59,084 bases of DNA from a virus. Lineage: Duplodnaviria > Heunggongvirae > Uroviricota > Caudoviricetes. The notes beneath the pieces are model-generated. The model did not search any database and had not been told where the DNA came from. It saw nothing but the letters and a program-made list of their open reading frames with translations. The translations under genes were made by a program, and so were the position numbers. Below are positions 35,424 to 55,791 of the stretch, piece by piece (within the stretch, counting starts at the first letter, position 1; the number at the start of each line of letters is the position of its first letter). The stretch lies in IMG/VR virus record IMGVR_UViG_2703718809_000006; one strand, given 5' to 3'.

Positions 35424-38400
35424 TTATGCGTATTGTTGGATGACGGCCAGAACGTCCGCCACGTTGTGTTTTGTCTCGATAATCCACCAGTTACCCGGGA
35501 AATCGCTGTTCTTCGCCTTCGCTGGCAGCCAGCGAGCGCCGAATTTCGCCTTGATTGCGTCTTTCGCACGGAAAAGAACGCCTTTCATGCCTGAGGCTTC
35601 CTGAAGCCCAAATACCTCGCCAGCGGCGAATTTTGGTGCGTACATCATCTTCAGGTCGGCGGTGGATACGCGATAATTCAGACCAAGAGACTGAGCTATG
35701 CTGGTGGCATCACCCTGTATTGATGATAACTCTTCTTGTTTCTCGTTTCTGGCGGCAATCTCTTCCTCCGTGATGTTGCCAAGGGCTAGGTTTATCCGAT
35801 CAGCGTCGGCCTGTTTCTCTTCATCGGTGCGCCCGGCAAGAACCGTGTTAATTCTCTGCAATATCTCCACATGATTCTTGCGCATGCTGAGCAATTCCGG
35901 CGTAACCTCGTTAAGATCCACCAGCCCAAGGATGGCAAGGTCGGAAAACATTGATACCAGGTTGTAGGTCATGCGATAGCTGAGTTGACCATAGGCTGAT
36001 GGCAACTTCACCGCATCCATTTGATAGGCATCCATAAATTTAGAGCCGTCGTTTACGACATCCGCTATTGCAGGTGTGATTTTCCCTGTGGTGGCGGCCT
36101 CCCTGATTGCTGTTACCCACGATTGAGTCAGCGCGGCGACTGCATGATTCAGATTGGCTTCCCGTTCTGCTGCGATGCGCGCGCTTGCTGCGTCCATTGC
36201 CTGCTTGATCTCGGCTTTATTGCTGTAAATGCCAATGGTGCCAAACTGTGCTGTGGTGATCTCATAATCTGACGCCCGGAACTCATTGGTACCGAAAATG
36301 GCATTGGTGACTTCAAGTTCAGAATCCCCGTTACGAGTAGCCCCCTGGCTTGTTTTTTCCGGCATTCTGGCGATCGCATCCGCTATTTTCTCCTGAATTG
36401 CTTCAGGGGATAGCGTATCTCCGTATGACGCGATTACATCGCCATAATTGGAGCCAAACAGTTCAACCAGGAATGTTTCTGCCGAACGGATCTGGCGGTT
36501 ATTCCCTTCCGACATCATACCAAGCACCCATTTTGCAATTGACGACTTCAGCGCGCCGTCACGGCGATCCGGGTAAACCGCATGCTTCAGTGGGTCCGTA
36601 TAGGTACCAACAAAATCGATGCTATAGCCTGACTCTGTAGTCTGAACGCCGTATGAGTCAGTGATTTTGATCATGCCGCGCTGCTGGAAACGGTAGAAAT
36701 CGTCACAGGAAATGATGTCGTTAATCCCGGCGATGGAGACGCCACCACTGATTTTCTGCATAACAGCATCTTCATCGGGAGTTACATCAACCTGTTTATC
36801 CAGCGTCTTCACATCCCAGTTACCCGATTTGGTGCCTTTGAAGGTAAAGATGATCTCCACGTCTGCGCGCTGGCTGTCGAAGTCCAGCGACTTAATGCGA
36901 ACGATATCACCGGCACAATCATAGTATTGGCCTACACGCCATGAGCGATCGCCGATAACAAGGAACTCATTCGCATGGTTAACCAGATCAGGATCAACAT
37001 CCAGAATGCCTTTATTTATTGCATCCTCCACCAGCGGGCGCAGGCGTTTGATATCCGTCGCGGCCTTCTGAGTACGGTTCAATAATTTCTCATAGCGGGA
37101 GATGGCCTGAGAGATATTAGCCTTGCGCTGAATGGCGCTTTTCAACGACGCGCGATACTGTGCTAACAACGTACGGTCTGTGTGATGGACGCTACCCCAG
37201 CGGGCTTTCCAGTCTGCGTTATCAGCTGCTTTGGCCATTACCGCCTGTTTGAATTTGGCGACGTCGGCGGTGGTCTTTTCAAGTTCCGCTTTGCTTCGCT
37301 CTAATTCAGCGGTAAGCACCTCCACATCCTCACCAGCTGCGTGCTGCGCCTTGATGTAGTTCTGAAGGTCGATAGTAGCCTGTTCTTTCTGGCGAGCGCG
37401 TTGCGCGGCTTTCGCCTTATCCATTTGAACCTGCATCATTGCCAGACGTTCGCCATCATCCTTAGCGGTATACATCTGCATTTCGATCATATCGTTGGCG
37501 TCGGCGTTCTCCATTTCTGACTTATCTGAACGGAGGATATCGGAGATCCAGCCTGCTTTACGCTTCAGCGTCTTCAGTCGGTATTCATCGAAAGAACCCT
37601 TGCCGCAGTAGTAGTGAACGCGAACGCTTGCACGGTTGGAGCCAACTCGGGCACCGCGACCGTTTCGTTGCGCAATACTGGCTGGAGTCCATGGCAACGT
37701 CAGATGATGGATGTCAGTCGTTCCTCGATGCAGGTTGATACCCACCTCTGCCTTTTTGTTGCAGATGATGATCGGAGTCCGGCCCTCCTGGAAGTCGGCT
37801 GCAATCTTTTCCAGACCGCCCAACGACATTTCATTTTGCTGCGCGATATAGGCGTCATACAGAGCCATTTGCTCGTTGTATTTCGCTATCTGTGCATCTG
37901 TTGGTTCATCCGGTAACTCTTTCGGCGGTTTAACCGCTTTCAGTTTCTTACCGGTTTTACCTGCCTCGGCAACCGTCTGAGCATTCAGTATCCCCACCTT
38001 TGAAGGTTCAAGGTTAAGAGCATTGCAGATAATGCGCTTGAGCTTCTGGTGCTGCGTTTTTTCATCGGTGAAGATGATTTGCTTACCTTCCGGGAAAAAC
38101 TCCTTCAGCGTGGCAATCAGCTTCGCGTATTTGGGCGTAACGGGGTGAGTTACGGTCTGTTCGTCAATGCCAAACCTGGCCAGGCGCTTATTCACTTCCT
38201 GCTCGAACGCTTCCGGAACCTGCAACTGAATAAACTCGCCCTTATCTATCAGGGAGTATTGCGATTGCTGCGTGATTGAATCATCACTGTCGTCGTCTTC
38301 GCTGGTGGCTTGTTTAGGCAAACTGTCTGCCAGCTGCTGCACCGCATCGGCGTACTCCGGCAGGAAACGATAGGTGATCCGGCGATAGTACAGGTCCATG

Positions 38401-41400
38401 TCAGTACATACGCGGTCCATATCCCTGATTATTGAGAAGATCGGACGGGCTTTCTCGTGCTCAATCACGCCGTCTTCATTGACCGAGGTCGTTACACCAT
38501 TGTTGGCTTTGGCCGCCGCTTCCGCCTGCTGACGCAATTCTTCATACGCCGCCAGTTGTTCTTCAGTAAGTGGTGCATCCTGCTGGTGTTCGTCCAGTTC
38601 CGGGATCTCCACGGTATCCTTAACGTCTTCCGCTGTTTTAAGCGTTGTCCAGCGATGGAATATGCCGCGCAGCGCATCAAGGTTTTCAAAACCCACCAGC
38701 GCCATTTTTTCTTCAACTTCGCCGCTGATTTTCTGTACCGTTTCCAGCCTGGTCTTGCCGAAGAATTTTACGAAGTCATCAGGACTGTAGATCCCCATCT
38801 TCTGCCAGTATTCCTTCGGCAGAACATGAGAAAGCATGTTGTATGCATCGATCGGGGTGTTAACGACTGGTGTTGCAGTCAGGAGAACCGGTCCGCGCCC
38901 GCCATTCTTTTTCATCAAGTACGCGTTTTTGATTGCCATATCTCGCGCCGATTGCGCCACCGCGCTGGTGGGCAGATAGGCCAGCTGTGACGCTTCGCGA
39001 CCATTTTTATAGCTATTGCGGTAGTTGTGGCCTTCGTCAGCAATCACGCTGTCGAAGCCCATATCCTCAAAGTACGGATACTTCTCTGCTTTTTCGGTAC
39101 CGGTATCTGAATACTCCGACAATACCCGGCGACGCGCCGCCTCTTTGCGGTGGGAGTCGGAGTCCATTGCGCTGGCTACGCGCCCGGCGGCAACGAAGTC
39201 ATAAAGCATGTCTTGTGCATGCTCATCTACGGTGTCATCACGTAGCGGAATGCGGGCGTATTGTTCTTTGGTAAACACGACTGCACGGTAATTTGAGTGC
39301 GGGATCGCGTTCATCCGCGCCGTGATAGTGGCTTCATCTGCCAGCTTAAGAGCATCGCGCATAACTGGAGTGCCATCAGTACCAAGAACAGGTTTACCGT
39401 TCTCATTGAGCACCGGCACCTGGCGAATCTGATCGCCATCCATCAGCACATCAAGACCGACGAACAAGTAGTTACTGAATGCCTCTTCACTCAGGAATTC
39501 TTTTGCTTCGTAATACCAATTTTCCAGCACTGATTTAGGCACTACATACGCAGTACGGGTGGAGCGACCGTTCTCATAGTTGAACGCCTCAAGCGCCAGC
39601 GCGGTCGTGGTTTTACCCAGCCCGGTGCCGAAGCCCAGGATGCCGCGCCCATCTTCGGACAGTCGGCGCACCTCGCTATTCTGGTAATCAAATGGCTGGC
39701 GCTTACCGCTTAATCCCTTCAACCCAAGCGGATCGCCAGAGTGTTCATACGGGATATTGCTATTGAACACATCGTTGTATTTGGCAACCAGCTCATCGTA
39801 GCGATCGTGCGTCTTGATCCACTTATTGAACTGGTCCTCAAGCAGTGCCATCTGCTCGCGGTAGCCGTTCGCCGTCGCGCTATCTTTGCCACCGATACGC
39901 GCACCATTGAGATACTTTTCCAGCTGTGCCGGGAACCCGGTCGCGTTTTCACCTGATTTACGGTCCCACTCGTAGCGAATCTCACCTGTTTCTTTATCCT
40001 TGCGCTGGACGACACCGTATCGGTGCCCGACGAACAGACCATCACCACCGTGATAGGTGTCAGAAACCATTTCGTCGCCTTCCAGCTGCACTGACTGCAC
40101 ATAGCGCAGATCCGGATAGCCGTTTTCCTGCAAAAATTCCAGAATGACGGAACGGTCGAACCAACGGCTATTGAGCTTAAACCGGATATTCTCTGCTGGC
40201 GTCTTGATGCGCTTCTCTTCGATAGCTGCCAGCTGATTAAGGACGTTGTTCTTTACTGGACCGTCGGGGAGTGTGGCGAGGAATTCCTGTTTTGGAGCCA
40301 CTATCTCGTTAATGTCGCCGCTGGTGGCGCGGGCGAACGGAACAATCCCGCCATACGGTGAAACCGCAATACCAGGGGTGCTGGCCAATAAATTAAGCAA
40401 CTCTTCATCACTGGCTGGCAGTTCGCCGGTAAACGCAAGGCGGAAATCATCGAGCTGGATTGGATCGCGGGTGAGATCGCTATAGAGATAACGCAGGGTG
40501 TCCTGATAGCTGGTGGAGTCATAACTTGCGCTGGAATCATGCGTAACCAGCTTCCCTGTCAGCTCGTCAGAAATAGTGCCATCCAGCTTAATTGCACCAC
40601 GGAAAGCAAACCAGGCGCGCGCACCGCTCCCCGACAATTTCGCTATCGGACCGCGACCGGGGTTACCAAAACGGTCAATCTCTGCCTGCAAACGGGATAC
40701 CAGAGAAAGGCGCTGCTGTTCGATTTGTTCAGCACTATGCCCGGCGGCCTTCATGTCCTGATATTCAATTAACATCCGGCCAATCATCGCCCCGCGATAC
40801 AAGCGTTCACGGTATTTTTCAGGCTGGCTGTTAATCCAGTCCACCAGCTGCACCATATCGTCGCTGATTGATGTGGTGTACTTATCGCGGACATTTGCCA
40901 TCTGGGTAAATGTCATGCCGAGACGGCCTTCTGTTGTAGTCAGGTTACGCTGAAGAGCCTCCCAGCTATCCGCGCCATAACTGGCAGCATCGATCTTAAG
41001 TTCCTTCCCGGCATCAGCTTCAATCCAGCGACCACCAGCATATTTTTGCCATACGCCATTAATCAGGCGCATTTCCCCTTCACCAACAACGTCTGCGGTC
41101 GGTGACGGTTCAGCCATATCGAGCAAAGACCAGTCGATACGGCTTTCGAAACGATGAATCAGCTTCGCTTTAAGAGCCTGGTTATCAATCTGACCGTCGG
41201 CACGAACCTCAATACGCCCCTGGAAGCCCTTTTCCTGGGTGCCATGAACAAACCGGCGGCCGTCCTTTTCAAACCACTTGCCAGAAATAAACGTTGGCCA
41301 AAGCACATTTGCCGATTCGAGAGTGCTTTCATCCACCAGGGGGATTTTCTCAGCCATCTCTGCCGGATGTTTGCGCATCAGCACCACATCAACAACTGTA

Positions 41401-42191
41401 CTGGTCCCGTTTGCGTCAAAAGTACCGGTAGGCAAGCGGTGGGCACCAAGAAATTCAGCTTTCCGTGATAGGCGCAGGCGTAACCGCTTCATGTTTGAAC
41501 CTGAAACAATGGACGGCGGCACAATCACGCACATGAATCCGCCTGGCTTTATCTTGTCCAGCATGCGGAGCATGAAGTAAGAACCCATGTCCGTTTCTTC
41601 TGCGTAAGGCTTATCGATGTTGCGTGTGTTATCACGACCACCGAACGGAACGTTACCCACAACATGGTCGAATGAATCGTTAGGCGTGCTTACAGCCAGT
41701 TGTTCGAACGGAGAAATCTGTACGCTGTCTTCCGGGTGCAACAGCTGGTTTATACGACCGGAAACACTGCTGATCTCAGTCGCGGTCATCACCGTACCAA
41801 CCGGTTTTGTCTCATTAAAAACGCCGGTTCCCGCCGATGGTTCCAGAGTGTTACCTACGTCCGCGCCGTAGAGCTTCATGATCTCCCAGACACCTTCAGC
41901 GATCGGCTTTGGTGTGTAATATTCGGAGACGGACCCGCCAATGCCGCCTTCGCCGGTGTACCCAGCCAGGATCTGGCGCTGTTCATCTGTCAGTGTCGCG
42001 CCGTCCACCAGCGAATTAAGCAAATCTATCGCCTTCTGATTCGCCTCCCGGCGTAGTCGGTCATAGCTTTTGCCTTCCACCTTTTCCACGCCGTATCTAA
42101 TCGGCGCTCGGTGAGATGTTATTGCACTAATGTATTTCAATATTTCGCTGACACTTGAACAGCGAAACACCCCCATAGATAGCTTGTTCAT
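35424..42191 (-). CDS. darB: DarB antirestriction protein (N6-adenine methyltransferase fused to a DExH helicase)
   Basis: 2255 aa; 'VGNVPFGG' MTase motif IV-like; helicase Walker A 'GFGTGLGKTT' and 'VIADEGHNYRN'. Confidence 0.9.
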   Translation of the reverse strand: MNKLSMGVFRCSSVSEILKYISAITSHRAPIRYGVEKVEGKSYDRLRREANQKAIDLLNSLVDGATLTDEQRQILAGYTGEGGIGGSVSEYYTPKPIAEGVWEIMKLYGADVGNTLEPSAGTGVFNETKPVGTVMTATEISSVSGRINQLLHPEDSVQISPFEQLAVSTPNDSFDHVVGNVPFGGRDNTRNIDKPYAEETDMGSYFMLRMLDKIKPGGFMCVIVPPSIVSGSNMKRLRLRLSRKAEFLGAHRLPTGTFDANGTSTVVDVVLMRKHPAEMAEKIPLVDESTLESANVLWPTFISGKWFEKDGRRFVHGTQEKGFQGRIEVRADGQIDNQALKAKLIHRFESRIDWSLLDMAEPSPTADVVGEGEMRLINGVWQKYAGGRWIEADAGKELKIDAASYGADSWEALQRNLTTTEGRLGMTFTQMANVRDKYTTSISDDMVQLVDWINSQPEKYRERLYRGAMIGRMLIEYQDMKAAGHSAEQIEQQRLSLVSRLQAEIDRFGNPGRGPIAKLSGSGARAWFAFRGAIKLDGTISDELTGKLVTHDSSASYDSTSYQDTLRYLYSDLTRDPIQLDDFRLAFTGELPASDEELLNLLASTPGIAVSPYGGIVPFARATSGDINEIVAPKQEFLATLPDGPVKNNVLNQLAAIEEKRIKTPAENIRFKLNSRWFDRSVILEFLQENGYPDLRYVQSVQLEGDEMVSDTYHGGDGLFVGHRYGVVQRKDKETGEIRYEWDRKSGENATGFPAQLEKYLNGARIGGKDSATANGYREQMALLEDQFNKWIKTHDRYDELVAKYNDVFNSNIPYEHSGDPLGLKGLSGKRQPFDYQNSEVRRLSEDGRGILGFGTGLGKTTTALALEAFNYENGRSTRTAYVVPKSVLENWYYEAKEFLSEEAFSNYLFVGLDVLMDGDQIRQVPVLNENGKPVLGTDGTPVMRDALKLADEATITARMNAIPHSNYRAVVFTKEQYARIPLRDDTVDEHAQDMLYDFVAAGRVASAMDSDSHRKEAARRRVLSEYSDTGTEKAEKYPYFEDMGFDSVIADEGHNYRNSYKNGREASQLAYLPTSAVAQSARDMAIKNAYLMKKNGGRGPVLLTATPVVNTPIDAYNMLSHVLPKEYWQKMGIYSPDDFVKFFGKTRLETVQKISGEVEEKMALVGFENLDALRGIFHRWTTLKTAEDVKDTVEIPELDEHQQDAPLTEEQLAAYEELRQQAEAAAKANNGVTTSVNEDGVIEHEKARPIFSIIRDMDRVCTDMDLYYRRITYRFLPEYADAVQQLADSLPKQATSEDDDSDDSITQQSQYSLIDKGEFIQLQVPEAFEQEVNKRLARFGIDEQTVTHPVTPKYAKLIATLKEFFPEGKQIIFTDEKTQHQKLKRIICNALNLEPSKVGILNAQTVAEAGKTGKKLKAVKPPKELPDEPTDAQIAKYNEQMALYDAYIAQQNEMSLGGLEKIAADFQEGRTPIIICNKKAEVGINLHRGTTDIHHLTLPWTPASIAQRNGRGARVGSNRASVRVHYYCGKGSFDEYRLKTLKRKAGWISDILRSDKSEMENADANDMIEMQMYTAKDDGERLAMMQVQMDKAKAAQRARQKEQATIDLQNYIKAQHAAGEDVEVLTAELERSKAELEKTTADVAKFKQAVMAKAADNADWKARWGSVHHTDRTLLAQYRASLKSAIQRKANISQAISRYEKLLNRTQKAATDIKRLRPLVEDAINKGILDVDPDLVNHANEFLVIGDRSWRVGQYYDCAGDIVRIKSLDFDSQRADVEIIFTFKGTKSGNWDVKTLDKQVDVTPDEDAVMQKISGGVSIAGINDIISCDDFYRFQQRGMIKITDSYGVQTTESGYSIDFVGTYTDPLKHAVYPDRRDGALKSSIAKWVLGMMSEGNNRQIRSAETFLVELFGSNYGDVIASYGDTLSPEAIQEKIADAIARMPEKTSQGATRNGDSELEVTNAIFGTNEFRASDYEITTAQFGTIGIYSNKAEIKQAMDAASARIAAEREANLNHAVAALTQSWVTAIREAATTGKITPAIADVVNDGSKFMDAYQMDAVKLPSAYGQLSYRMTYNLVSMFSDLAILGLVDLNEVTPELLSMRKNHVEILQRINTVLAGRTDEEKQADADRINLALGNITEEEIAARNEKQEELSSIQGDATSIAQSLGLNYRVSTADLKMMYAPKFAAGEVFGLQEASGMKGVLFRAKDAIKAKFGARWLPAKAKNSDFPGNWWIIETKHNVADVLAVIQQYA

Positions 42192-42258: not shown

Positions 42259-44989
<2,731 letters not shown>

Positions 44990-46490: not shown

Positions 46491-46738
46491 AGTTAACTTG
46501 TGAGTTATTTGTAAATAGTTCATACACAGGCCCATGTTAATACAGGGGATTTTTATTTCTAGTAACTATAAGAGGTGTTAATTATTAATTGACAATCTTT
46601 AGTGTTTCGCGCACCTTGCAAGTATCCAATATTTACTGATTGTGGACGCATAAAGAAGATCCACAGCGTTACAAATTTGTATTTCTTTCTTCAGCAATTA
46701 AGCAGGCGACTTGCTCTATCCTGCCCAAAGGAACACGT

Positions 46739-48094
46739 ATGACACACTGCAAAGAAAATACTTGGTATGAGCGTCAAGGGTACAATACCACCCGCCCGAA
46801 TGAGATAAGGTCGGAGTATGAACGTGATCTTTCCCGGTTAATCCACTCTTCCGCTTTTAGGAGATTACAATCGAAGACGCAGGTGTTGGGATTGGGCGAA
46901 AGCGATTTCTACCGTACGCGGCTAACTCACTCTATGGAAGTAGCGCAAATTGGCGGCGGTATCTTGTCTCAGTTGTCTAAGCGCGATACAGATGAGGGGG
47001 GTAAATTCTTACCTGACCCAAGCCTGATGCAGGCTATCTGCCTTGCTCATGATATAGGACATCCCCCCTTCGGTCATGGTGGTGAGGTCGCACTAAACTA
47101 CTGCATGAGATCCTATGGCGGCTTTGAAGGTAACGGGCAGACACTGCGTATACTCTCCAAACTGGATAAGTACACCGAAACCAATGGGCTGGATCCCACC
47201 CGTAGACTTATTTTAGGCGTACTGAAATATCCAGCAAGCTATTCAGAGGTCGTCAATGAGAGGGCTTACAGCCAGTTACAGCCAAGAAGCAATGAGTGGT
47301 TGTTTAAATCATCCGAATTTAAGCCCCCGAAATGTTACCTGGACTCTGAGGAGAACACTGTTAGATTCGCACTCCAACCTTTTGATAGTGATGATGTTAA
47401 GTTATTCAAAACGGTAAAAACTACCGCGTTGAATAAGCACAAGGAAACAATATATAAAGCACTGGATACAACGATTATGGACTTGGCTGATGAGATATCC
47501 TACTCACTCCATGATCTTGAAGACGCAATTTCTCTGAAGATGATCGACAAAAAAATGTGGGAGGAGCACTTCGAGGACAAATCCCATTTATTTGCAGCTT
47601 GCCAATGCGACTCGTTTAATCTAAAAGCCGATGATGTAGCTGAAAAACTGTTCGGCGAAAGTTATCTACGCAAGGAGTGCATAGGGACACTTGTTCATCT
47701 GATGATCACTAGCGTTAAGCTTGAAGTGCAGAACTCTGATTTCAAAAGTAAAATTTTACGCTATAAAGTAGCACTTCCTGCCGCGGTAGAAGAGTTACGT
47801 AAAGCCATTTTTGAGCTGGTTAGGAACAAAGTTATTCAGCACGAAAACGTCCAACTATTAGAGTTCAAAGGTCAGAAACTGATTGTGGAACTATTCAATG
47901 TACTGGCAAATGACCCAATACGTTTTCTCCCGACAGAAACTCGAAAGAAATATAATCAAGAGGAAGCAAAAGGTGATGATAAAAAAATGCGCGTCATTTG
48001 CGACTATGTTTCAGGCATGACAGATGATTACGCTACTCGACTGTATGAGAAAATATTTGTACCGAGAAAAGGCTCTATTTTTGATAGACTCTGA
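46739..48094 (+). CDS. Dgt-family dNTP triphosphohydrolase (dGTPase-like, HD domain)
   Basis: 'FRRLQSKTQV...RTRLTHSMEVAQIG' and 'HDIGHPPFGH' match the Dgt N-terminal/HD motifs; AAGGA 7 nt upstream of the ATG; AT-rich. Confidence 0.8.
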   Translation: MTHCKENTWYERQGYNTTRPNEIRSEYERDLSRLIHSSAFRRLQSKTQVLGLGESDFYRTRLTHSMEVAQIGGGILSQLSKRDTDEGGKFLPDPSLMQAICLAHDIGHPPFGHGGEVALNYCMRSYGGFEGNGQTLRILSKLDKYTETNGLDPTRRLILGVLKYPASYSEVVNERAYSQLQPRSNEWLFKSSEFKPPKCYLDSEENTVRFALQPFDSDDVKLFKTVKTTALNKHKETIYKALDTTIMDLADEISYSLHDLEDAISLKMIDKKMWEEHFEDKSHLFAACQCDSFNLKADDVAEKLFGESYLRKECIGTLVHLMITSVKLEVQNSDFKSKILRYKVALPAAVEELRKAIFELVRNKVIQHENVQLLEFKGQKLIVELFNVLANDPIRFLPTETRKKYNQEEAKGDDKKMRVICDYVSGMTDDYATRLYEKIFVPRKGSIFDRL

Positions 48095-48258
48095 TTTTTT
48101 TCTATTATATAGTACGTAGCCGGGTTCCAGAACCGCATAAAATTAGATCTGGATATAATTCATTTAATTATCTGTTATATGCCAAACATAACGATATATA
48201 ATAGTGGATTAGATGTTACAACTTGACGCAGAATAAATAGCTTTTATTGGCGCATGAT

Positions 48259-48286
48259 GCAAACCCCGCAATGAAGCGGGGTTTTA
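48259..48286. terminator. Bidirectional rho-independent terminator between convergent genes
   Basis: AAACCCCGC-aatgaa-GCGGGGTTTT. Confidence 0.65.
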
Positions 48287-48301
48287 ACTGTGGTAAATGA
48301 G

Positions 48302-48670
48302 TTATAATCTTTTAATCAGGCTCTCAATATTAGTTGGTTCAAAGTAATGCTTATTAACCTCTCCATTTATGAGGAAACCGTCTTTTAGTAGTCGGTCTAG
48401 CTCACGCTCTGCTTCTTTGTTGAACATACCTGGATATATTCTCTTGTACAACTGAAACGTACCATTCATATTCCTGTAAGCATTCTCAGCAATTTCAATG
48501 GAGATTTCATTTCCGGCGTTAAATACAGGAATGAATATCTCAAGAATATCATTCTTTAACTTCTGTTTAAGTTTCTTTTTTTCAACAATATTAGAATAAA
48601 AGATACCTAAAAAAAATGTGCAGATACCAGGAAGCCAATTATTAACGAAAACCTCAGACAAAGCGTCCAC
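48302..48670 (-). CDS. AT-rich hypothetical protein with N-terminal hydrophobic segment
   Basis: 122-aa ORF convergent with the dGTPase-like gene. Confidence 0.45.
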   Translation of the reverse strand: MDALSEVFVNNWLPGICTFFLGIFYSNIVEKKKLKQKLKNDILEIFIPVFNAGNEISIEIAENAYRNMNGTFQLYKRIYPGMFNKEAERELDRLLKDGFLINGEVNKHYFEPTNIESLIKRL

Positions 48671-48876: not shown

Positions 48877-49185
48877 CTAATATACAAACTGATCCACATG
48901 ATCACCCAAATCATCGTCGTCGTCCTCATCGCCACCATCTACTGCTGGCCAATCAACAAACCAGCCAGCGTAAAGATGCAGCGTTCGGAGAACATCACTT
49001 GCGGGAGCATCAAGGGTGTTAACGAATCCCATATAGCTATTGGGATTTGCTCCAGCTATGGCTTCAGCGATCATGTCCTCGGTAATGTCACCGGAGATAA
49101 TGCTTAAACGCCCGGAAACTTCTTCATTATCATCAAATTCGATAATGGCATCTCCACCTAATGGCGCTGCGATTTTAATCTGCAT
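48877..49185 (-). CDS. Acidic hypothetical protein (P1 hxr position)
   Basis: 102-aa ORF with a poly-Asp tail, downstream of the ddrB-like gene. Confidence 0.4.
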   Translation of the reverse strand: MQIKIAAPLGGDAIIEFDDNEEVSGRLSIISGDITEDMIAEAIAGANPNSYMGFVNTLDAPASDVLRTLHLYAGWFVDWPAVDGGDEDDDDDLGDHVDQFVY

Positions 49186-52162
49186 TATTTAGCTCCTTTG
49201 CCACACCTAATAACAGTTCCAGCAATCCGTCACCATTCATCAGTGATGCGGCAGCGGCCTCTTTGTCATGATACAACTGAAGAGCCATAGAGAATACTTC
49301 CGTTGCTGACGTTTTGGAAATAGTCGGTGATTTCTGCCGAATTTTCCCGGTGTTACTTACTGAGGCTGGCGGGTATACCTTCGCCATATAAATATTACTC
49401 AATCGAGATCTGAAGCACCATTCAGGCTTGCCACGCCCACCGATATTGACGAAAGATGGCTTATCCCCTTCAACATTGGCCTTCAGGAATGACCGGGCTT
49501 TCTCTAACAAACCAGGGTTACTGTACTCAAGATGATGACCCAGCTCGTGCCACAGTGCACTTGCATTTTCATCGTTCAAATTGACAGCAACAACACCATT
49601 TAGATTTGCATATGCCCTTCCCTGGTGGTGAACTACCTTTGATAAGGTCGATATTTTCCCGCCGGTCAGGCGATAAATATCAGCAAGTTCCTTGCGCAGG
49701 TCTATCCCACCATTCTGTCCAGCGCGGGCTTCTTCCACTTCTTCTGTGATAAAAGAGTCGGCCCACTCAAGAGCTTTTTCTTCAGATACGGATGAGTTTG
49801 CGATCGCACTGTTCATGGCAGATAACACTTTCTCGTGGACCGAACCCATACTTCGCTGATTCATTTGCCAGCGTGTCTGCGGGTTATATGAGAATCGCTT
49901 AAGTAGTTGGTCAAGCTGCTCAAGTTCTTCTTCACTGACATACTTTTTAGCCTCACCAATAATGCCAGGGAGAATATTGCCGTTAGGATTAAACGCTCGC
50001 GAAAGGAAGAGTTTCAGCGCCCCCATGCCCTCCGATGCTTCAATATCACCAATAACCCGGTTAACAATGGCCGCACTCTTCGGATTAGCATCCGCCAACG
50101 CTCTGGCTACGATTTGCAGGGACGATACGACCTCACGCTGCATATCAGTCCTGATCTCATCAATAAACTCTGGCGTTATGCCGTGCTCTTTAAGGATATC
50201 CCGGCCTTCCGCCGTTACCCCATAGATATCACCGACATGTTTATTAACACGACTTTGCAATGCCTTAAATGCCTTCAGAATTCCACGGGCATCATCCGCT
50301 TTACTAACGGCCTTCCTGAATGCTGGCAAGAAGTCTGAGTTAACCTCATTTTGTTGATCGGCCCACTGAATGGAGGCTTCTTTCATCTCGTCCAGAGTCA
50401 GATCACCCAACGCGGTATGGTCTGTGAATATGAGCGACAACCTCTGAACCATTTCTGCCAATGGTGATGCCGAATGCGCCGCGCTAAGGAATGCTTTCAC
50501 CCTGGTTGGGCGAATGGAAAACCAGTCAATAGCTGGTGGCATATCTCCGTTTTTTATCGCCTGCGCTATCTCGTCAAAGCCATCGCGCCCAAGGGAAGAT
50601 GCGTGATTTAACAAGCCGCGAAGTAACGAATTGCTGATACCGAATAATCGGCACCATTTTTTCACGTCGGCAACAGGCATTCGAACAAAATGCGCAAGCA
50701 CTTGAACAAGCTGTTCATCCTGGGGATCTGTACGGGAAAGCAGCCTGATCAGATGAATAATGTCTTTGATGCCGGATGCCCGATGTAATAGCAAGCTGGT
50801 ATATGGAGCAACACCGTTGTAACTACCGCCAGAAGCTGACTCGAAAAGACCGCCAGATATCCCTTGCATACCTTCGTTTTCCAGTTCCTGAGATACTTGG
50901 CGAAGGATATCCTGTAACGACACATCGCCGCCGCCAAACATATCCCCGAGCGCCTGGCCCTGGTGCTGTAACTCATCATTGATACGTTGCGCCATCAACT
51001 TAAAGGCGGTGGCCATACGCTTCGCGCTACGGTTATTCGCGACGATGAACAACGCGAGTGCTTTCACCTCCGGGGCCGTTTCGCTGAACATATCCCCCTG
51101 AGCAATAACATCGGTAATATGCTGGCCTGACTCCTTCGATTGCCTTACCAGGTCTACCGCATCTTTCAATGCCGCCAGCGCCTTTTTATCGAGGCTATCC
51201 GCTGTCTCAATGCCATCAACAATAGTTGTCACAGCCTGCTTGTGCGCTTCTCCTGATAAAGCCTGCATCTGGACAAAATCATTGGCTGCCGCATTAAGCG
51301 CCGTCAGAACATTACGCATATCCGGATCAGGTTCTTCTGCAACCATCCTTACCAGGCGCGCATCCTTATATGCCTTGGCAAAGATCGCGTTTTGTATACG
51401 GTCAACAAGTTGCCGTGTTGGTCGCCCATCTTCAGTTACAAGGCCAGCCGCCTGTGTGGCACCAACTTGCGTCATAAATCCGCGAATAAACGCGTCATTA
51501 CTGCGGCTAAGCAGATCTCCGCTTTCTGACGGGTTAAAAAGCGCCATCATCGCCGGTGTTATGCTGTCGGCATCAACAAAAGCCTTTTCACTGGCTGCCA
51601 TTTCCTGGAGATCAGAAATATTTGAGTCCTTGGCAAACTGAACACGGTCAACCGTCGTTAACCGGCGGCGCACCAGTACCGGAGCCGTCATTGATTCAAC
51701 CTTTTCAGGCCGTATGCCGAATTCGGTCGCATGTTCAATCAGGTACTCCCGATACCGATCCGCATTACCGTCCTGATAGGCTTTAATGATCCCCATGGTC
51801 CGCCCATTACCTGACTCAACGGCATTGTCCTCACCAATTATTGGCGCGCCATGGCTGGATAAACCGGAATCGGTAAGCTGGGCAGGACGCAAATCCTTGG
51901 ATATCTGGTTGACCTGAAGAAGGCTGGATGCGCGGGTCCGGTCGCGCGGCTGAAGTTCCTGGGGATAGTCTGGATTAATTTTCCCATCCAGAGTATTGGA
52001 TACCAAAAGAGCTGAGGCATCGACGATATCAAACGCTGTTTTTACCTCGTCTCCCTTCGCTGTCACCACATACGAAACCCGCCCATAATCGGGCAGGTTC
52101 TTTAGCAGCTCGATCAGCGTTTCTATGCTGGTGGCCATTACCACCTGATCGCTTAAGCTCAT
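49175..52162 (-). CDS. ddrB: Large darA-operon protein (DdrB-like)
   Basis: 995-aa ORF downstream of darA on the same strand; assigned by position only. Confidence 0.5.
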   Translation of the reverse strand: MSLSDQVVMATSIETLIELLKNLPDYGRVSYVVTAKGDEVKTAFDIVDASALLVSNTLDGKINPDYPQELQPRDRTRASSLLQVNQISKDLRPAQLTDSGLSSHGAPIIGEDNAVESGNGRTMGIIKAYQDGNADRYREYLIEHATEFGIRPEKVESMTAPVLVRRRLTTVDRVQFAKDSNISDLQEMAASEKAFVDADSITPAMMALFNPSESGDLLSRSNDAFIRGFMTQVGATQAAGLVTEDGRPTRQLVDRIQNAIFAKAYKDARLVRMVAEEPDPDMRNVLTALNAAANDFVQMQALSGEAHKQAVTTIVDGIETADSLDKKALAALKDAVDLVRQSKESGQHITDVIAQGDMFSETAPEVKALALFIVANNRSAKRMATAFKLMAQRINDELQHQGQALGDMFGGGDVSLQDILRQVSQELENEGMQGISGGLFESASGGSYNGVAPYTSLLLHRASGIKDIIHLIRLLSRTDPQDEQLVQVLAHFVRMPVADVKKWCRLFGISNSLLRGLLNHASSLGRDGFDEIAQAIKNGDMPPAIDWFSIRPTRVKAFLSAAHSASPLAEMVQRLSLIFTDHTALGDLTLDEMKEASIQWADQQNEVNSDFLPAFRKAVSKADDARGILKAFKALQSRVNKHVGDIYGVTAEGRDILKEHGITPEFIDEIRTDMQREVVSSLQIVARALADANPKSAAIVNRVIGDIEASEGMGALKLFLSRAFNPNGNILPGIIGEAKKYVSEEELEQLDQLLKRFSYNPQTRWQMNQRSMGSVHEKVLSAMNSAIANSSVSEEKALEWADSFITEEVEEARAGQNGGIDLRKELADIYRLTGGKISTLSKVVHHQGRAYANLNGVVAVNLNDENASALWHELGHHLEYSNPGLLEKARSFLKANVEGDKPSFVNIGGRGKPEWCFRSRLSNIYMAKVYPPASVSNTGKIRQKSPTISKTSATEVFSMALQLYHDKEAAAASLMNGDGLLELLLGVAKELNNAD

Positions 52163-53509
52163 CCCTGTTACGCCTTATCCAATGTGCCGCCCCCTACGCT
52201 CCTCATAGTGGGGATATAAGGCACAGTTTTCCTCCCGGCTATTTTTGCTTAAAATAGTGACATGAAACAACAGGTGTCATTCAAATTCCGGTTAAAACCA
52301 GATGGTCAACAGGAGTGTCAAATGAGGCGCTTTGCCGGAGCTTGTCGTTTCGTTTTCAACCGTGCTCTGGCGCTTCAGAATGAGAATCATGAGGCCGGTA
52401 AAAAATACATCCCTTACACGAAAATGGCTTCCTGGTTGGTTGAGTGGAAAAAAGACACTGAAACCGAATGGCTTATAGATTCTCCCTCACAGCCATTGCA
52501 ACAGTCACTGAAAGACCTTGAGCGGGCTTACAAAAACTTCTTCCAGAATCGGGCTGCTTTTCCCCGATTCAAAAAGCGGGGACAGAATGATGCATTTCGC
52601 TACCCGCAGGGCGTTAAGCTCGATCAGGAAAACAGCCGTATTTTTCTGCCGAAACTGGGCTGGATGCGCTACCGGAATAGCCGTCAGGTCACGGGAGTTG
52701 TGAAAAATGTCACTGTCAGCCAGTCCTGCGGTAAGTGGTACATCAGTATTCAGACAGAAAGTGAAATATCCACTCCGGTTCACCCTTCAGCATCAATGAT
52801 CGGGCTGGATGCTGGCGTGGCTAAACTCGCCACGCTGTCAGATGGCACAGTCTTTGAGCCTGTAAACAGTTTTCAGAAAAACCAGAAGAAGCTGGCGAGA
52901 CTTCAGCGACAGTTAAGCCGCAAGGTCAAATTCAGCAACAACTGGCAGAAGCAGAAACGCAAAATACAGCGACTGCATTTTCGTATCGCAAATATCCGCA
53001 GAGACTACCTTCATAAAGTCACAACGATCATCAGCAAAAACCACGCAATGATTGTCATTGAGGATTTGAAGGTTAAATACATGTCAAAGTCAGCGGCGGG
53101 AACGATAAGTCATCCGGGTCGCAATGTCCGGGCAAAATCAGGTTTAAACCGTTCGATACTGGATCAGGGCTGGTATGAAATGCGCCGCCAGCTTGAGTAC
53201 AAGCAGCTCTGGCGTGGCGGTCAGGTGCTTGCTGTTCCGCCAGCGTACACAAGCCAGCGTTGCGCGTGCTGTGGTCATACAGCGAAAGAAAATCGCCTGT
53301 CACAAAGTAAATTCAGATGCCAGGTATGTGGATATACAGCGAACGCCGATGTAAACGGCGCTCGTAACATTTTAGCGGCGGGGCACGCCGTACTTGCCTG
53401 TGGAGGGATGGTGCAGTCAGGCCGCCCGTTGAAGCAGGAACCCACCGAAATGATTCAGGCGACAGCCTGAACGTAGCAGGAATCCACGCCCCGAAGGGCG
53501 TGGAGGATG
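52163..53509 (+). mobile_element. IS200/IS605-family tnpB-only insertion element (IS1341-like)
   Basis: About 1.35 kb exactly filling the gap between the ddrA-like stop and the ddrB-like start; TnpB ORF plus 3' hairpin CCACGCCC-cgaa-GGGCGTGG. Confidence 0.7.
52262..53470 (+). CDS. tnpB: TnpB (OrfB) RNA-guided nuclease/transposase accessory protein
   Basis: 402 aa; RuvC-like 'GLDAGV' and 'MIVIEDLKV'; C-terminal zinc finger 'CACCGH...CQVCGY'; '[10 protein letters not shown]'. Confidence 0.85.
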
Positions 53510-53875
53510 TCACGCTGCCTCTTTAATGTTGGCGGCTATCCATGCCGCCGTGTGCTGTTTAACTTGGTCCAGGTCGATGTATGTGCCAACATATTGACTC
53601 AAGTCCTGTAACGTACCGATAAATGCATCAGTGCTCTGATCGACGAATTTATCAGCCAGGAAATCAGCAATCAGTTTTGGCACACCATCATGTTCCGAAG
53701 GTTGTTTTTCCTCGTCACTACTGCCGCCGGACACGCCGTACCCCATCTGTTGCATGATCTGGTCAATTTCATCGCTGATATCCAGCAACTCCATGCCACT
53801 CGCGGTAGCCGCTTTGGACATCAGAGCATCCAACTTATCGCTGAGATCCATTAACTCAATAGCTGATAGTGTCAT
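53510..53875 (-). CDS. Small acidic darA-operon protein (DdrA-like)
   Basis: 121-aa ORF directly downstream of darA. Confidence 0.45.
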   Translation of the reverse strand: MTLSAIELMDLSDKLDALMSKAATASGMELLDISDEIDQIMQQMGYGVSGGSSDEEKQPSEHDGVPKLIADFLADKFVDQSTDAFIGTLQDLSQYVGTYIDLDQVKQHTAAWIAANIKEAA

Positions 53876-55791
53876 GCCGCTACCCCCGCTTTCTGGATTG
53901 CTACCAGCAGATCAGCCAGGTGGCGAGCAGCGCCATTAACCAGCTCTTCGTTTTCCTCAAAACGCCCGGCAGCCTGAAGGGCTGCAATCGCTTCCCGGAC
54001 ATTACCCCGGGCGTTACGGATCTCCGCCATGTCAGTGCTTTGCATATCCATCACGTTATTGAGATATTCAATGGCTTTATTAGCCTCTGCATCTGCTTCG
54101 CTAACCGTTTCATCAGGCTGTGCCGGGGCAGGTTCTGGCTGAGTAATCTCACCGACTTCGGCCTGCAATGCATTGATCATGCTCTGCACCATTTTCTCGG
54201 TGCCAGCGCCCCCCGGATACGCAATATTGGGGAAAGTTTTTTGAAACTGAGTTTTCAGCATTACGCGGAACTCGTCTGGTGAGCTGGTGGCCAGCTCCAG
54301 AGCTTTTTGTGCATATTTGCCAAACGGACCATTAGTAAGTGTCTTCGCCAGGAAGTCGAAAGAATCCTCGCGAGGCAATAACTTCAGGTCGTACTCACTC
54401 ATTTGCTGATCAGAAAGCGGGGTATCGTAAGTAGCAATGCCGTAGCGTGCATATTCATAATACGGGTCACCTTCATCAGGGCGCGGCAGAATTGCTTTGT
54501 TACCTTCAGGTATTGCGCCAGGGGCCGCCGGACGCATTTGCAGGGCATATCGATATGCACCTACAGAGACTTCTGGTTCAGGCGAAGAGCTACCGGTATC
54601 CTCCGCTGGTTCAGGTTCGACGTTTTCCGGTTTATGTTCTTCTGGTTGGACCAGGTATTCCGATACATTACCCGCTTTATAGGCTTTAAACAGCTTGCCG
54701 ATCGCATCTGCCATGTCCACACCCTGTATGGATTTAGCCTTGATCATGTACACGCTGCCATCCGAATCGGTTAACTGGATATACCCTTCGCCGTCCTCAA
54801 TGAATTGCTTCATTGATGCACCATTACTGAGCGTCACTTCCCCGTTCATATGCATACGATTTTTGATACTGGCAAGGCGATCCGTCATCGCGCGAGAGTG
54901 TCCACCAGTCATCCCCGCAGGAGCAATGGTATCGCGCCCACCAGTGCGATTGAGCTGATCAATCTCCGTCTGTAAACGCTCATTCTCTTCATAAAGAGAA
55001 TCCGCTTCCGATGCAACAGCGTTAATTTTCTGCTCCAGATCTACCTTCTGCCCTTCTACCGCTGCCACCTGATCCACGAGGTCGCTCATGGCATCCTCTT
55101 TCTGGTCACTGTCAGCCTGTAGTTGGGTTATTTCATCAACAAGGGCTTTTTTCTTCTTCTGCGCACGCTGAAATTTTGCCGAGTTTTTCTCTGCAAGGTT
55201 GGCAAGTTTCATGGTGACCTGCGCCAGCGTCATATCACGTCCACTCATCGGAGCAACGGTGTGAGTAACGTCTTTTTTATTCAGTAAGAACTGGAAAGCA
55301 ACCAGCGTATCGCTATTGGTGATCCGGTTTTCCGCTGTCGGGCTATGAAACAGAATGCTGATAGTCTGACCATCACTGAGCGGAATAATGGCTGGCAGGA
55401 CCGGCAGCCCGTTAACGTTACGTGCCCGGCCAATTTCAGCACCGCCGATCGCGCGCGCGCCGCTCTGGGCCACATCCCCCGTTTTATCACTCCCCGCAGA
55501 GATTCCGGTACCATTCAGCTTCTGGTTCAATGCCCGGACAAATGCCTGCATGGTCCGGTGTAACTGCAAACGAGTAGAACTAATCGCCTCCAGTAAATCC
55601 GTAGCACACCAGTGGATCGGCGTGTCATAGAAGAACGTAGCCTCGATTTCCTCCAGGGTGTTGGATTCCGTCATCAGATAGCGGTCCTCACCGGCCATTA
55701 ATGCGCGATATTCATCATCAGTCACTGGCGGGGGAAGCACGTCAAGCCCAGGCTTGATCGTCACCCCTTTATTGATATTGAACTGTTCCAT
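53872..55791 (-). CDS. darA: DarA antirestriction/head protein
   Basis: 639-aa ORF; shares the 'KNSAKFQ' segment with the upstream Hdf-like ORF; operon position. Confidence 0.6.
   Translation of the reverse strand: MEQFNINKGVTIKPGLDVLPPPVTDDEYRALMAGEDRYLMTESNTLEEIEATFFYDTPIHWCATDLLEAISSTRLQLHRTMQAFVRALNQKLNGTGISAGSDKTGDVAQSGARAIGGAEIGRARNVNGLPVLPAIIPLSDGQTISILFHSPTAENRITNSDTLVAFQFLLNKKDVTHTVAPMSGRDMTLAQVTMKLANLAEKNSAKFQRAQKKKKALVDEITQLQADSDQKEDAMSDLVDQVAAVEGQKVDLEQKINAVASEADSLYEENERLQTEIDQLNRTGGRDTIAPAGMTGGHSRAMTDRLASIKNRMHMNGEVTLSNGASMKQFIEDGEGYIQLTDSDGSVYMIKAKSIQGVDMADAIGKLFKAYKAGNVSEYLVQPEEHKPENVEPEPAEDTGSSSPEPEVSVGAYRYALQMRPAAPGAIPEGNKAILPRPDEGDPYYEYARYGIATYDTPLSDQQMSEYDLKLLPREDSFDFLAKTLTNGPFGKYAQKALELATSSPDEFRVMLKTQFQKTFPNIAYPGGAGTEKMVQSMINALQAEVGEITQPEPAPAQPDETVSEADAEANKAIEYLNNVMDMQSTDMAEIRNARGNVREAIAALQAAGRFEENEELVNGAARHLADLLVAIQKAGVAA

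Follow-up and report, generated by a model that had tools for sequence, protein, structure and literature searches.

The darA operon studied here is interrupted between its ddrA-like and ddrB-like genes, which raises three questions: what has been inserted, whether it can still move, and what has kept it in place. The locus lies in a stretch of 59,084 nucleotides (the window) from IMG/VR record IMGVR_UViG_2703718809_000006, in which a first-pass annotation had pointed to an IS200/IS605-family tnpB-only element, oriented against the operon. We confirmed that an IS609-like tnpB-only element is inserted in a darA operon of the P1 type, where it separates ddrA from ddrB. The explanation that we consider fairly probable is that this is an IS609-like tnpB-only insertion with an intact nuclease, probably immobile, which persists as an old polymorphism among P1-like genomes. 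The features discussed below are collected in Table 1.

Table 1. Features of the interrupted darA operon, with positions in the window and the evidence or remark attached to each.
Feature	Position	Strand	Evidence or remark
ddrB-like gene, 995 aa	49175..52162	-	ddrB-ParB domain; operon-downstream of the insertion
TTAT target tetranucleotide (left cleavage site)	52175..52178	+	P1 intergenic sequence, retained beside the left end
IS609-like tnpB-only element, 1335 bp	52179..53513	+	base-exact alignment with phage P1
Left end	52179..52261	+	alignment with IS609-like copies L005, L006 and L012-L015
tnpB, 402 aa, RNA-guided endonuclease (predicted)	52262..53470	+	Pfam; ISDra2 TnpB alignment
Predicted omega-RNA scaffold over the tnpB 3' end and right end	53367..53513	+	5' limit approximate
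Right-end guide tetranucleotide GAAT	53480-53483	+	canonical in IS609
Right-end hairpin CCACGCCC-CGAA-GGGCGTGG	53484-53503	+	
Right cleavage motif TCAC	53510..53513	+	TCAA is canonical in IS609
ddrA-like gene, 121 aa	53510..53875	-	length and C-terminal Ala kept despite the insertion
Predicted omega-RNA guide flank GCTGCCTCTTTAATGTTGGC	53514..53533	+	ddrA 3' end, antisense; family rule
darA, 639 aa, upstream operon gene	53872..55791	-	Pfam DarA_N and DarA_C; P1 synteny

Identity and extent of the insertion

The gene order hdf-darA-ddrA-ddrB is that of P1 and the flanks are 97-98% identical to P1. The ends of the element were set from the alignment to P1, whose empty site reads ...CGCCTTAT/GCTGCCTCTTTAATG... 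(the slash marks the insertion point), so that an empty TTAT/GCTGCC in P1 corresponds to an occupied TTAT/CCAATG...GTCAC/GCTGCC. The element sits 3' of TTAT, and the comparison with P1 reveals neither a target duplication nor terminal inverted repeats. The uninterrupted site was found in P1, P7, JL22, Ro157, Ec-20Lar and Z1323; this comparison with P1-like genomes, which had been suggested at the outset, defines the insertion site to the base. It also corrects the earlier description, according to which the element exactly filled the intergenic gap: the 16 nt at 52163..52178, TTAT included, are native P1 intergenic sequence, the left edge of the element moving by 16 nt and the right edge by 4 nt. 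The remainder of that description holds, with tnpB on the plus strand, between the 121-aa ddrA-like and 995-aa ddrB-like genes, and ddrA, ddrB and darA all on the minus strand.

The left cleavage site of IS609 was given as TTAT by Venturini 2019 (PMC6906374), and the same tetranucleotide flanks the left side of the IS609-like copies L005, L006, L012 and L014, which occupy other sites. We infer that the TTAT of the window is also the target-adjacent motif (TAM) of the encoded nuclease. The element is 100% identical to the copy in the E. coli MBT-5 plasmid NZ_CP058684, where the identity extends over 2901 nt and the TnpB gene is annotated, while chromosomal insQ copies of E. coli share ~95% DNA identity with it from element position 100 onward (94.7% for K-12 insQ over element positions 100-1334). 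Because of its protein domains and catalytic residues, along with insertion at a tetranucleotide without duplication, the assignment to the tnpB-only elements of IS200/IS605 stands, and judging from its sequence the element is an IS609-like member of that family, a kind already known. It entered a P1-like phage-plasmid once, through 'peel-and-paste' transposition of a single strand, and the TTAT on whose 3' side it landed shares bases with the ddrA stop codon TAA.

Effect on the darA operon

The insertion point lies inside the last codon of ddrA, and for this reason the stop codon of ddrA is now drawn from the right end of the element: read on the minus strand, TCAC supplies the stop TGA and the third base of the last Ala codon. 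As this sequence restores the Ala codon together with a stop, the insertion is harmless to DdrA. On the other side, the 16 nt upstream of ddrB are native, and TAAGG in the ribosome-binding region is among them. A promoter and terminator scan predicted no convincing terminator on the operon strand; it returned a minus-strand promoter-like site at 52280..52251 and a weak terminator-like site at 52896..52881, but as the counts of such sites equal the shuffle expectation, they are no evidence either way on polarity. The element does part ddrB from the operon promoter by 1.3 kb, and the anti-restriction phenotype could change in the ~15% of P1-like elements concerned. Annotations should place the element at 52179..53513 and record that the stop codon of ddrA is borrowed from it.

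The TnpB protein

The 402-aa protein, correctly recognized in the first-pass annotation by its RuvC-like and zinc-finger motifs, contains HTH, RuvC-like and zinc-ribbon domains, matched by the Pfam families HTH_OrfB_IS605 (E 4e-15), OrfB_IS605 (E 4e-33) and Cas12f1-like_TNB (E 2e-24), all exceeding their gathering cut-offs. The RuvC triad D183, E267 and D363 is present, as are the zinc-finger cysteines C334, C337, C353 and C356, and over residues 5-376 the protein aligns to the ISDra2 TnpB structures 8bf8/8exa (E 6e-51) with the D-E-D triad and the CxxC...CxxC pattern conserved. By analogy, then, tnpB appears to encode an intact RuvC-type RNA-guided nuclease, although some TnpBs, e.g. HpyTnpB of IS608, are inactive in interference assays (10.1101/2023.03.14.532601). 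Domestication as a nuclease-dead regulator of the TldR type was considered and dismissed, every catalytic residue being intact.

The open reading frame of 402 aa and its catalytic residues are also intact in 16/16 same-site copies that were read through, which represent eight distinct proteins, with dN/dS of 0.14-0.24 (~0.2). The only frameshifted copy is that of 813R1, which has lost one base at each of two places, including the A-run at 52448. There is in addition a sign of gene conversion, in that 25 of the 66 variable sites have both alleles also in paralogous IS609 copies. The low dN/dS is weakened as proof of selection in place, since part of the variation was imported from paralogs by this route.

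Predicted omega RNA and its target

The first-pass annotation had expected the 3' end of tnpB together with the right end to encode an omega RNA, and for this the support is indirect. An RNAalifold consensus of 11 IS609-like copies gave 8 helices with 48 pairs, 4 of them with compensatory changes, in an alignment of close relatives that is partly coding; 98% of the cells were paired in the consensus fold, compared with 36-47% when the partners were slid. The single-sequence z-score of the scaffold is -1.9. A search of Rfam returned sub-threshold matches only (RAGATH-18, E 0.018, 28 bits against a cut-off of 44.9; HgcC, E 0.2, 19 against 50), and in E. coli K-12 transcripts overlapping the tnpB 3' end have been described (PMC4615843). 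By the rule of the family, the DNA that follows the right end on its 3' side serves as the guide (PMC8612924; 10.1101/2023.03.14.532601). We infer from these analogies that an omega RNA would span the 3' end of tnpB and the right end, with the adjacent 16-20 nt of ddrA as its guide.

The guide flank is identical to the sequence that follows TTAT in P1, and TTAT plus the first 17 nt of the guide is matched perfectly in 55/66 of the empty sites in IMG/VR. A complex of TnpB and omega RNA with TTAT as its TAM would therefore cut the uninterrupted ddrA-ddrB junction, and would spare its own locus, since GTCAC replaces the TAM there. Among the 11 variant empty sites, 7 differ at protospacer positions 1-2, which adjoin the TAM; G1T and T11C are among the natural variants. 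Those two positions also fall in the last codon of DdrA, which is probably weakly constrained.

Ends of the element and its probable immobility

At the right end, the 3' hairpin with a cgaa loop described in the first-pass annotation was found, with the canonical GAAT guide at its foot; folded as DNA it reaches -12 kcal/mol (z -5.0), and the right cleavage falls 10 nt 3' of the hairpin foot, a geometry as in IS608 (PMC3201880). The terminus reads GTCAC in 16/16 same-site copies, and GTCAA in 9/9 of the other-site copies examined. The left end departs from the family. It is homologous to that of canonical IS609 over its first 11 nt and again over its last ~48 nt, but at 52190..52213 an unrelated 24 nt stands in place of the canonical TAAAA guide and 8-bp hairpin. 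The TAAAA guide, complementary to the target, is missing, and the hairpin there is a weak substitute, the left end folding as DNA at -5.5 kcal/mol (z -0.5) vs -11.6 to -16 kcal/mol (z -3.6 to -5.0) for canonical ends. What the left end keeps is an outer stem, in which one change is compensatory, and an inner hairpin that is weak here and stronger in the SJ46-type copies. In IS608, no synaptic complex forms once the left guide is mutated (PMC3201880).

No tnpA was found by tblastn with an IS609-type TnpA over the whole window. One match, at 42607..42738 (E 0.005), was taken as chance level because it is antisense to a portal-like 569-aa ORF (42268..43977) and lies in no ORF of at least 80 aa. 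The tnpA upstream of the K-12 insQ copy is a divergent pseudogene. A relative on Xylella pXF27-J1 does carry a tnpA, of which a part was read. Given that the left guide and hairpin are replaced, that TCAC stands for TCAA, that tnpA is lacking and that all copies found occupy one site, this lineage of copies is probably no longer transposable. The first-pass annotation had called the element non-autonomous for want of tnpA; the absence of tnpA from the window stands, while the atypical ends and the single site suggest that its condition is probably worse than that.

Distribution and divergence

The locus is occupied in 64 of the ~452 E. coli genomes that carry it (about one in seven, ~15%), the left end and the left junction each being found in these 64. 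The whole junction-spanning query of 2901 nt was present in 72 PLSDB plasmids, though there is overlap between the E. coli and PLSDB collections, both of which lean towards clinical material. In IMG/VR, 12/12 left-end matches share the same flanks, and a pattern scan found 66 empty loci. Every copy with this left end in the three collections thus belongs to a single site, and the left end was not found in 185,579 species-representative genomes, which shows only that no other-site copy surfaced there. The alternative that this is an old domesticated gene, for which tnpB would be expected at this position in all relatives, is at odds with the ~85% of relatives that are without the element; on the same ground we regard it as an insertion, not an ancestral gene. 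Outside the collections counted here, pSvP1 (MN510446) has been reported to carry an 'IS609-like sequence'.

Copies of the element diverge by 2.0-3.75%, similar to the 1.7-2.5% of their flanks. In distance matrices of the flanks the occupied copies form no cluster, and linkage disequilibrium is low (SNP-SNP r2 of 0.15 at 51-100 nt), occupancy behaving like any other polymorphism. Because the region recombines so much, the flank and linkage tests cannot separate homing from ordinary recombination or vertical descent. These comparisons point to an old polymorphism in ~15% of P1-like elements, apparently kept by vertical inheritance and homologous recombination, and its persistence was perhaps aided by TnpB cutting of empty sites.

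Alternative explanations for the persistence of the element

Two other explanations, each of them unlikely in our view, deserve to be weighed against that of an immobile insertion with an intact nuclease. It could be argued that the element is still a mobile, non-autonomous IS that an IS609-type TnpA moves in trans, with TnpB doing no more than restoring the element after excision. In favour of this, about 75% of tnpB genes have no tnpA close by, and mobilisation in trans is assumed for them (10.1101/2023.03.14.532601). The right end has the hairpin and GAAT guide of canonical IS609, the left end retains its first 11 nt, outer stem and weak hairpin, and canonical IS609 has entered P1-like plasmids elsewhere, between pro and lyz (L006; PMC6906374). 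The left end may still be usable, and the one altered base of the right cleavage motif may matter little. Against this, one site accounts for the 64 E. coli genomes, the 72 PLSDB plasmids and the 12 IMG/VR contigs, with none in the species-representative genomes, and the TAAAA guide that pairs with TTAT is missing, the right motif is TCAC and the K-12 tnpA is a pseudogene.

An equally doubtful explanation makes the element an inert relic, hitch-hiking on a successful P1-like lineage while its tnpB is patched by gene conversion from chromosomal insQ. Conversion donors would be abundant, IS609/insQ being present in 5015/5426 E. coli genomes at a median of 2 copies; the differences between copies are clustered, besides sharing alleles with paralogs at the 25 sites mentioned, and the linkage of occupancy to flanking SNPs is like background. 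An inert relic fits poorly, however, with a dN/dS of ~0.2 and a sole frameshifted copy (813R1). Reading frame and catalytic residues are kept in 16/16 copies although these diverge by 2-3.75%, and each copy has 14-22 alleles that are absent from the four paralogs compared.

That the TnpB-omega-RNA has been domesticated as a weapon or gene drive, kept since the lysogen cuts incoming or co-resident P1-like genomes without the insertion and so excludes or converts them, is very improbable. In its favour, guide and TAM are exact in 55/66 empty sites and in P1, the own locus lacks a TAM, an intact nuclease accompanies degraded-looking transposition signals, and 7/11 variant empty sites are changed next to the TAM. 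Against it, the frequency is only ~15% with no sign of a sweep, the changes at positions 1-2 also alter the last codon of DdrA, which is probably under weak constraint, and linkage decays around the element no faster than elsewhere.

Returning to the explanation that we prefer, an intact nuclease on a probably immobile insertion, homing or the cutting of competitors is possible as an activity. The fixed guide and TTAT match the junction in ~85% of relatives, so that relatives entering a lysogen, or already resident in it, would be cut and either excluded or converted; that the stranded TnpB-omega-RNA is in fact an RNA-guided homing drive or an anti-competitor nuclease among P1-like phage-plasmids is a speculative proposal to which we give little credence at present. 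Were it true, lysogens would exclude or convert relatives with an uninterrupted ddrA-ddrB junction, and the P1-like phage-plasmids concerned are also vehicles by which resistance genes spread. Most P1 relatives have the site that the predicted guide would target, which makes this a simple, testable system for RNA-guided homing or exclusion. As a natural case of a tnpB element with degraded-looking transposition signals and an intact nuclease, it bears on the persistence of tnpB-only elements.

Comparison with known systems

A close relative is IS609/insQ of Escherichia coli, which has the same 402-aa TnpB, catalytic residues, right-end hairpin, GAAT guide, GGAGGATGTCA terminus and TTAT target. 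It differs in its canonical left guide and hairpin and in its last base, A in place of the C found here; the K-12 insQ has a tnpA pseudogene upstream, whereas the element in the window has none. The insertion itself is already annotated in public P1-like records: the phages RCS47 (FO818745) and SJ46 (KU760857) carry the same 1335-bp insertion at the same base position, labelled 'insQ / transposase IS605'. Relative to the copy in the window, the RCS47-type differs by 2.0% and the SJ46-type by 3.75%; in RCS47 the loop at the right end is TTCG instead of CGAA.

On pJIE250-3 (Venturini 2019, PMC6906374) and pE148-2 (the copy L006), a tnpB-only IS609 of ~1340 bp is likewise found in a P1-like backbone with TTAT as its left site, and it too gives a stop codon to a convergent neighbouring gene. 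In contrast to the copy described here, it lies between pro and lyz, and has the canonical left-end hairpin and the TCAA right end. IS608 of H. pylori and ISDra2 of D. radiodurans, the paradigms for the mechanism, share the subterminal hairpins, the guide tetranucleotide 5' of the foot by which cleavage sites are recognised, and the absence of target duplication (PMC3201880), but they carry tnpA and their targets are TTAC and TTGAT rather than TTAT. The TnpB of this group is an omega-RNA-guided nuclease whose TAM is the target motif (PMC8612924), as is predicted for the copy in the window. Finally, there is an analogy, of function only, with phage homing endonuclease genes, the product of which would cut the allele without the gene and spread it by recombinational repair. 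Homing endonucleases recognise DNA by protein and TnpB by an RNA guide, and for the element in the darA operon homing is hypothetical.

Identity and boundaries of the insertion

The 402-aa protein encoded between ddrB and ddrA matches the Pfam families HTH_OrfB_IS605, OrfB_IS605 and Cas12f1-like_TNB, all far above cut-offs. Its residues 5-376 align with ISDra2 TnpB structures (E 6e-51), and in this alignment the RuvC residues D183, E267 and D363 and the cysteines C334, C337, C353 and C356 are conserved. With these domains and catalytic residues present and no tnpA found anywhere in the window, the first-pass annotation, which had proposed a tnpB-only element of the IS200/IS605 family, was correct in both its observation and its main interpretation; the TnpB, its 3' hairpin and the flanking ddrA-like and ddrB-like genes that it had described are all found in the sequence (ORF list, Pfam). 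To this the present analysis adds the base-exact boundaries together with the stop codon borrowed by ddrA, the single-site distribution, the atypical ends alongside a conserved nuclease, and a guide predicted to match most relatives.

Positions 100-1334 of the element have matches of ~95% identity in 4,868 of 5,426 complete E. coli genomes, annotated as insQ or RNA-guided endonuclease TnpB and lying at conserved chromosomal sites by ydcO, yedK, yfaV and yfeD; a tnpA pseudogene adjoins the K-12 copy. On sequence similarity, the element is assigned to the IS609 lineage. IS609 is 1,340 bp long with left site TTAT and right site TCAA; in pJIE250-3, a P1-like plasmid, it is inserted between pro and lyz, and pSvP1 was reported with an "IS609-like sequence" (Venturini et al. 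2019, PMC6906374). Canonical tnpB-only IS609 elements are found elsewhere on plasmids, in pE148-2, which is P1-like, between lyz and pro (L006 2500-3804) and among phage-like genes of the ~92-kb p1_000837 (L005 2469-3804). The element studied here is already known from public records, as "insQ, transposase IS605" in RCS47 and SJ46 and as TnpB in RefSeq MBT-5.

By megablast, the whole 51400..54300 query was covered in five phage records (RCS47 and SJ46, two accessions each, and vB_EcoM-813R1), and the records of P1, P7, JL22, phi456 and Ro157c2YLVW matched in two pieces that left out ~1.3 kb. The suggested comparison with P1-like genomes defines the uninterrupted junction to the base: the P1 empty site reads ...CATCCGTGTTACGCCTTAT/GCTGCCTCTTTAATG... 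(slash, insertion point), with zero duplicated bases. Native P1 sequence accounts for the 16 nt from the ddrB start to the element, TTAT included, and the putative ddrB ribosome-binding region (TAAGG) remains joined to ddrB. P1 ddrA ends in GCA-TAA, and the insertion splits the GCA codon between its second and third bases; since the reverse complement of the element's terminal GTCAC supplies GCG-TGA, DdrA still has 121 residues with a terminal Ala. The right end supplies the TGA stop of the convergent neighbour in four independent IS609-type insertions. On the opposite strand TTAT reads A-TAA and ...GTCAA reads T-TGA-C, so that hits on TAA stops in this register regenerate a stop immediately.

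Coordinates of the insertion, its neighbours and related features
Feature	Sequence	Position	Strand	Basis
Element, 1335 bp	window	52179..53513		P1 (L001) alignment to window
tnpB ORF, 402 aa	window	52262..53470	+	ORF list
Right-end hairpin CCACGCCC-CGAA-GGGCGTGG	window	53484..53503
995-aa ORF (ddrB)	window	49175..52162	-	ORF list; Pfam ddrB-ParB
121-aa ORF (ddrA)	window	53510..53875	-	ORF list
639-aa ORF (darA)	window	53872..55791	-	ORF list; Pfam DarA_N + DarA_C
Borrowed TGA stop, ddrA	window	53510-53513
Borrowed TGA stop, ydcO	K-12 (L003)	3733-3736
Borrowed TGA stop, pro	pE148-2 (L006)	3801-3804
Borrowed TGA stop, relaxase	Xylella pXF27 (L017)	1631-1634
484-aa HD + HD_assoc (dGTPase-like) gene and 122-aa ORF, by hxr-like gene	window	46640-48670
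2255-aa ORF, upstream of portal-like gene	window	35424-42191	-

Distribution and history

The first 112 nt of the element are present at ≥95% identity in 64 E. coli genomes, every one on a plasmid, and 64 genomes also cover a query across the left junction; 388 genomes have the P1 junction without interruption. In IMG/VR, 12 contigs have the left end, all 12 between the same flanks, and 66 have the empty site. The entire 2901-nt junction-spanning query is covered in 72 PLSDB plasmids, and the left end has 0 matches in 185,579 species-representative genomes. No copies at any other site were found in the E. coli genomes, PLSDB, IMG/VR or the species-representative genomes. About 14-15% of P1-like elements are occupied; tnpB is not at this position in all relatives, the finding that would have counted against the proposal, and so the element is an insertion.

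Each of 16 same-site copies read through, encoding 8 distinct proteins, has a complete 402-aa ORF and every catalytic residue; the 813R1 copy has two single-base deletions. Differences among same-site copies occur in clusters, and 25 of the 66 variable sites have both of their alleles represented in paralogous IS609 copies as well, so gene conversion has brought in patches; the pairwise dN/dS of 0.14-0.24 has to be read with these patches in mind. Clusters at 52333-52342, 53227-53236 and 53315-53326 carry alleles of IS609 paralogs from the K-12 chromosome and Salmonella plasmids. The pattern indicates patchy gene conversion between phage-plasmid and host copies.

Same-site copies diverge by 2.0-3.75%, close to the 1.7-2.5% of the flanks, and flank similarity does not group the occupied copies together: the left flank of the window has 2 differences to the empty plasmid Ec-20Lar versus 17-23 to the occupied RCS47 and 813R1. 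Linkage of occupancy to nearby SNPs is low (r2 ≤0.27), comparable to the SNP-SNP background, and the insertion is therefore a polymorphism of long standing in a gene pool with extensive recombination. These divergence and linkage data are compatible with nuclease-driven homing but do not call for it.

Predicted omega RNA and target

Across 11 IS609-like copies, the final 160 nt share an 8-helix fold, including a long-range helix in which ACAUUU within the ORF pairs with GGAUGU shortly before the element end. Compensatory changes occur at 4 pairs, and 98% of cells are paired versus 36-47% with partners slid. Rfam gave sub-threshold matches only, to RAGATH-18 and HgcC, two families described in the literature as guide RNAs associated with tnpB or RNAs overlapping its 3' end (PMC11061315; PMC4615843), and 3' tnpB transcripts have been reported in E. 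coli K-12 (PMC4615843). The tnpB 3' end and the right end thus likely form the predicted omega RNA.

In the TnpB family, the guide sequence comes from the DNA that follows the right end on its 3' side, and the target motif serves as the TAM (PMC8612924; 10.1101/2023.03.14.532601). By this rule the predicted complex would recognise TTAT+GCTGCCTCTTTAATGTTGGC, which is exactly the P1 empty site. Of 66 IMG/VR empty sites, 55 agree with the TAM and the first 17 target bases; at the occupied locus GTCAC stands where the TAM would be, and the window holds just one further near-match, with 2 mismatches. Variant empty sites make up the other 11 of 66 (L035-L100), 7 of them at protospacer positions 1-2 (one with the TAM TTAC as well), where they change the last DdrA residue; these may represent escape, or neutral variation in a weakly constrained last ddrA codon. 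The observation also concerns the empty sites of JL22 (L019) and Z1323 (L022).

Operon context

As the first-pass annotation stated, tnpB is oriented against the operon, convergent with the minus-strand ddrA, ddrB and darA, so that ddrB expression requires 1.3 kb of read-through. Pattern scans of the region for promoter and terminator signals returned nothing over chance. The full 995-aa ddrB ORF is kept in the window, RCS47, MBT-5, JS01 and MINF_9A, and annotated ddrB has an equal 2988-nt span in SJ46 and p2_11899A. DdrB is one of six packaged Dar proteins (PMC12810830). A TAAAAT box 6 nt upstream of the tnpB ATG (52250-52261) is conserved without a Shine-Dalgarno sequence, likewise in other IS609-like copies, pointing to a tnpB mRNA that is leaderless; the box was not among the calls of the promoter scan.

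Elsewhere in the window, Pfam gives no match for the 122-aa ORF beside the HD + HD_assoc gene. In the MBT-5 plasmid, whose tnpB region is identical, a HipA-like yjjJ is present there instead; the locus resembles a variable hotspot for cargo, perhaps of defence genes. From its size and position, the 2255-aa ORF is read as putatively darB-like.

Element ends and mobility

The canonical left end, common to the IS609-like copies at other sites L005, L006 and L012-L015, reads TTAT/CCAGTGCGCCG-TAAAA-CCCCGTCC-TTCA-GGGCGGGG-ATATAAGG (slash, element boundary), and all nine other-site copies (L003, L005, L006, L012-L017) terminate in ...GGAAT-CCACGYCC-TTCA-GGGCGTGG-AGGATGTCAA/. The window right end has the canonical hairpin and GAAT guide, but its cleavage motif is TCAC, as in 16/16 same-site and 0/9 other-site copies. 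At the left end, CCCCCTACGCTCCTCATAGTGGGG takes the place of the TAAAA guide and 8-bp hairpin, and the fold is weak (-5.5 kcal/mol, z -0.5, versus -11.6 to -16 kcal/mol, z -3.6 to -5.0, for canonical left ends), the SJ46-type being intermediate at -8.2 kcal/mol. The left end cannot be called dead, because the outer stem is kept with one compensatory change (GTGCC/GGCAC versus GCGCC/GGCGC). The loop of the right-end hairpin (53492-53495) is flipped between copies with the stem unchanged, being CGAA in the window and SJ46-type and its reverse complement TTCG in the RCS47-type (L002); Gomes-Filho 2015 noted a UUCA tetraloop in canonical IS609.

The atypical ends, the lack of a tnpA gene and the restriction of all copies found to one site are most economically explained by immobility of the element. 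IS609-like ends have the architecture of IS608. In that element TnpA binds the hairpins, and each cleavage motif is recognised by base pairing with a guide tetranucleotide located 5' of the foot of a hairpin; cleavage on the right occurs 10 nt past the hairpin, and no synaptic complex forms once the left guide is mutated (PMC3201880).
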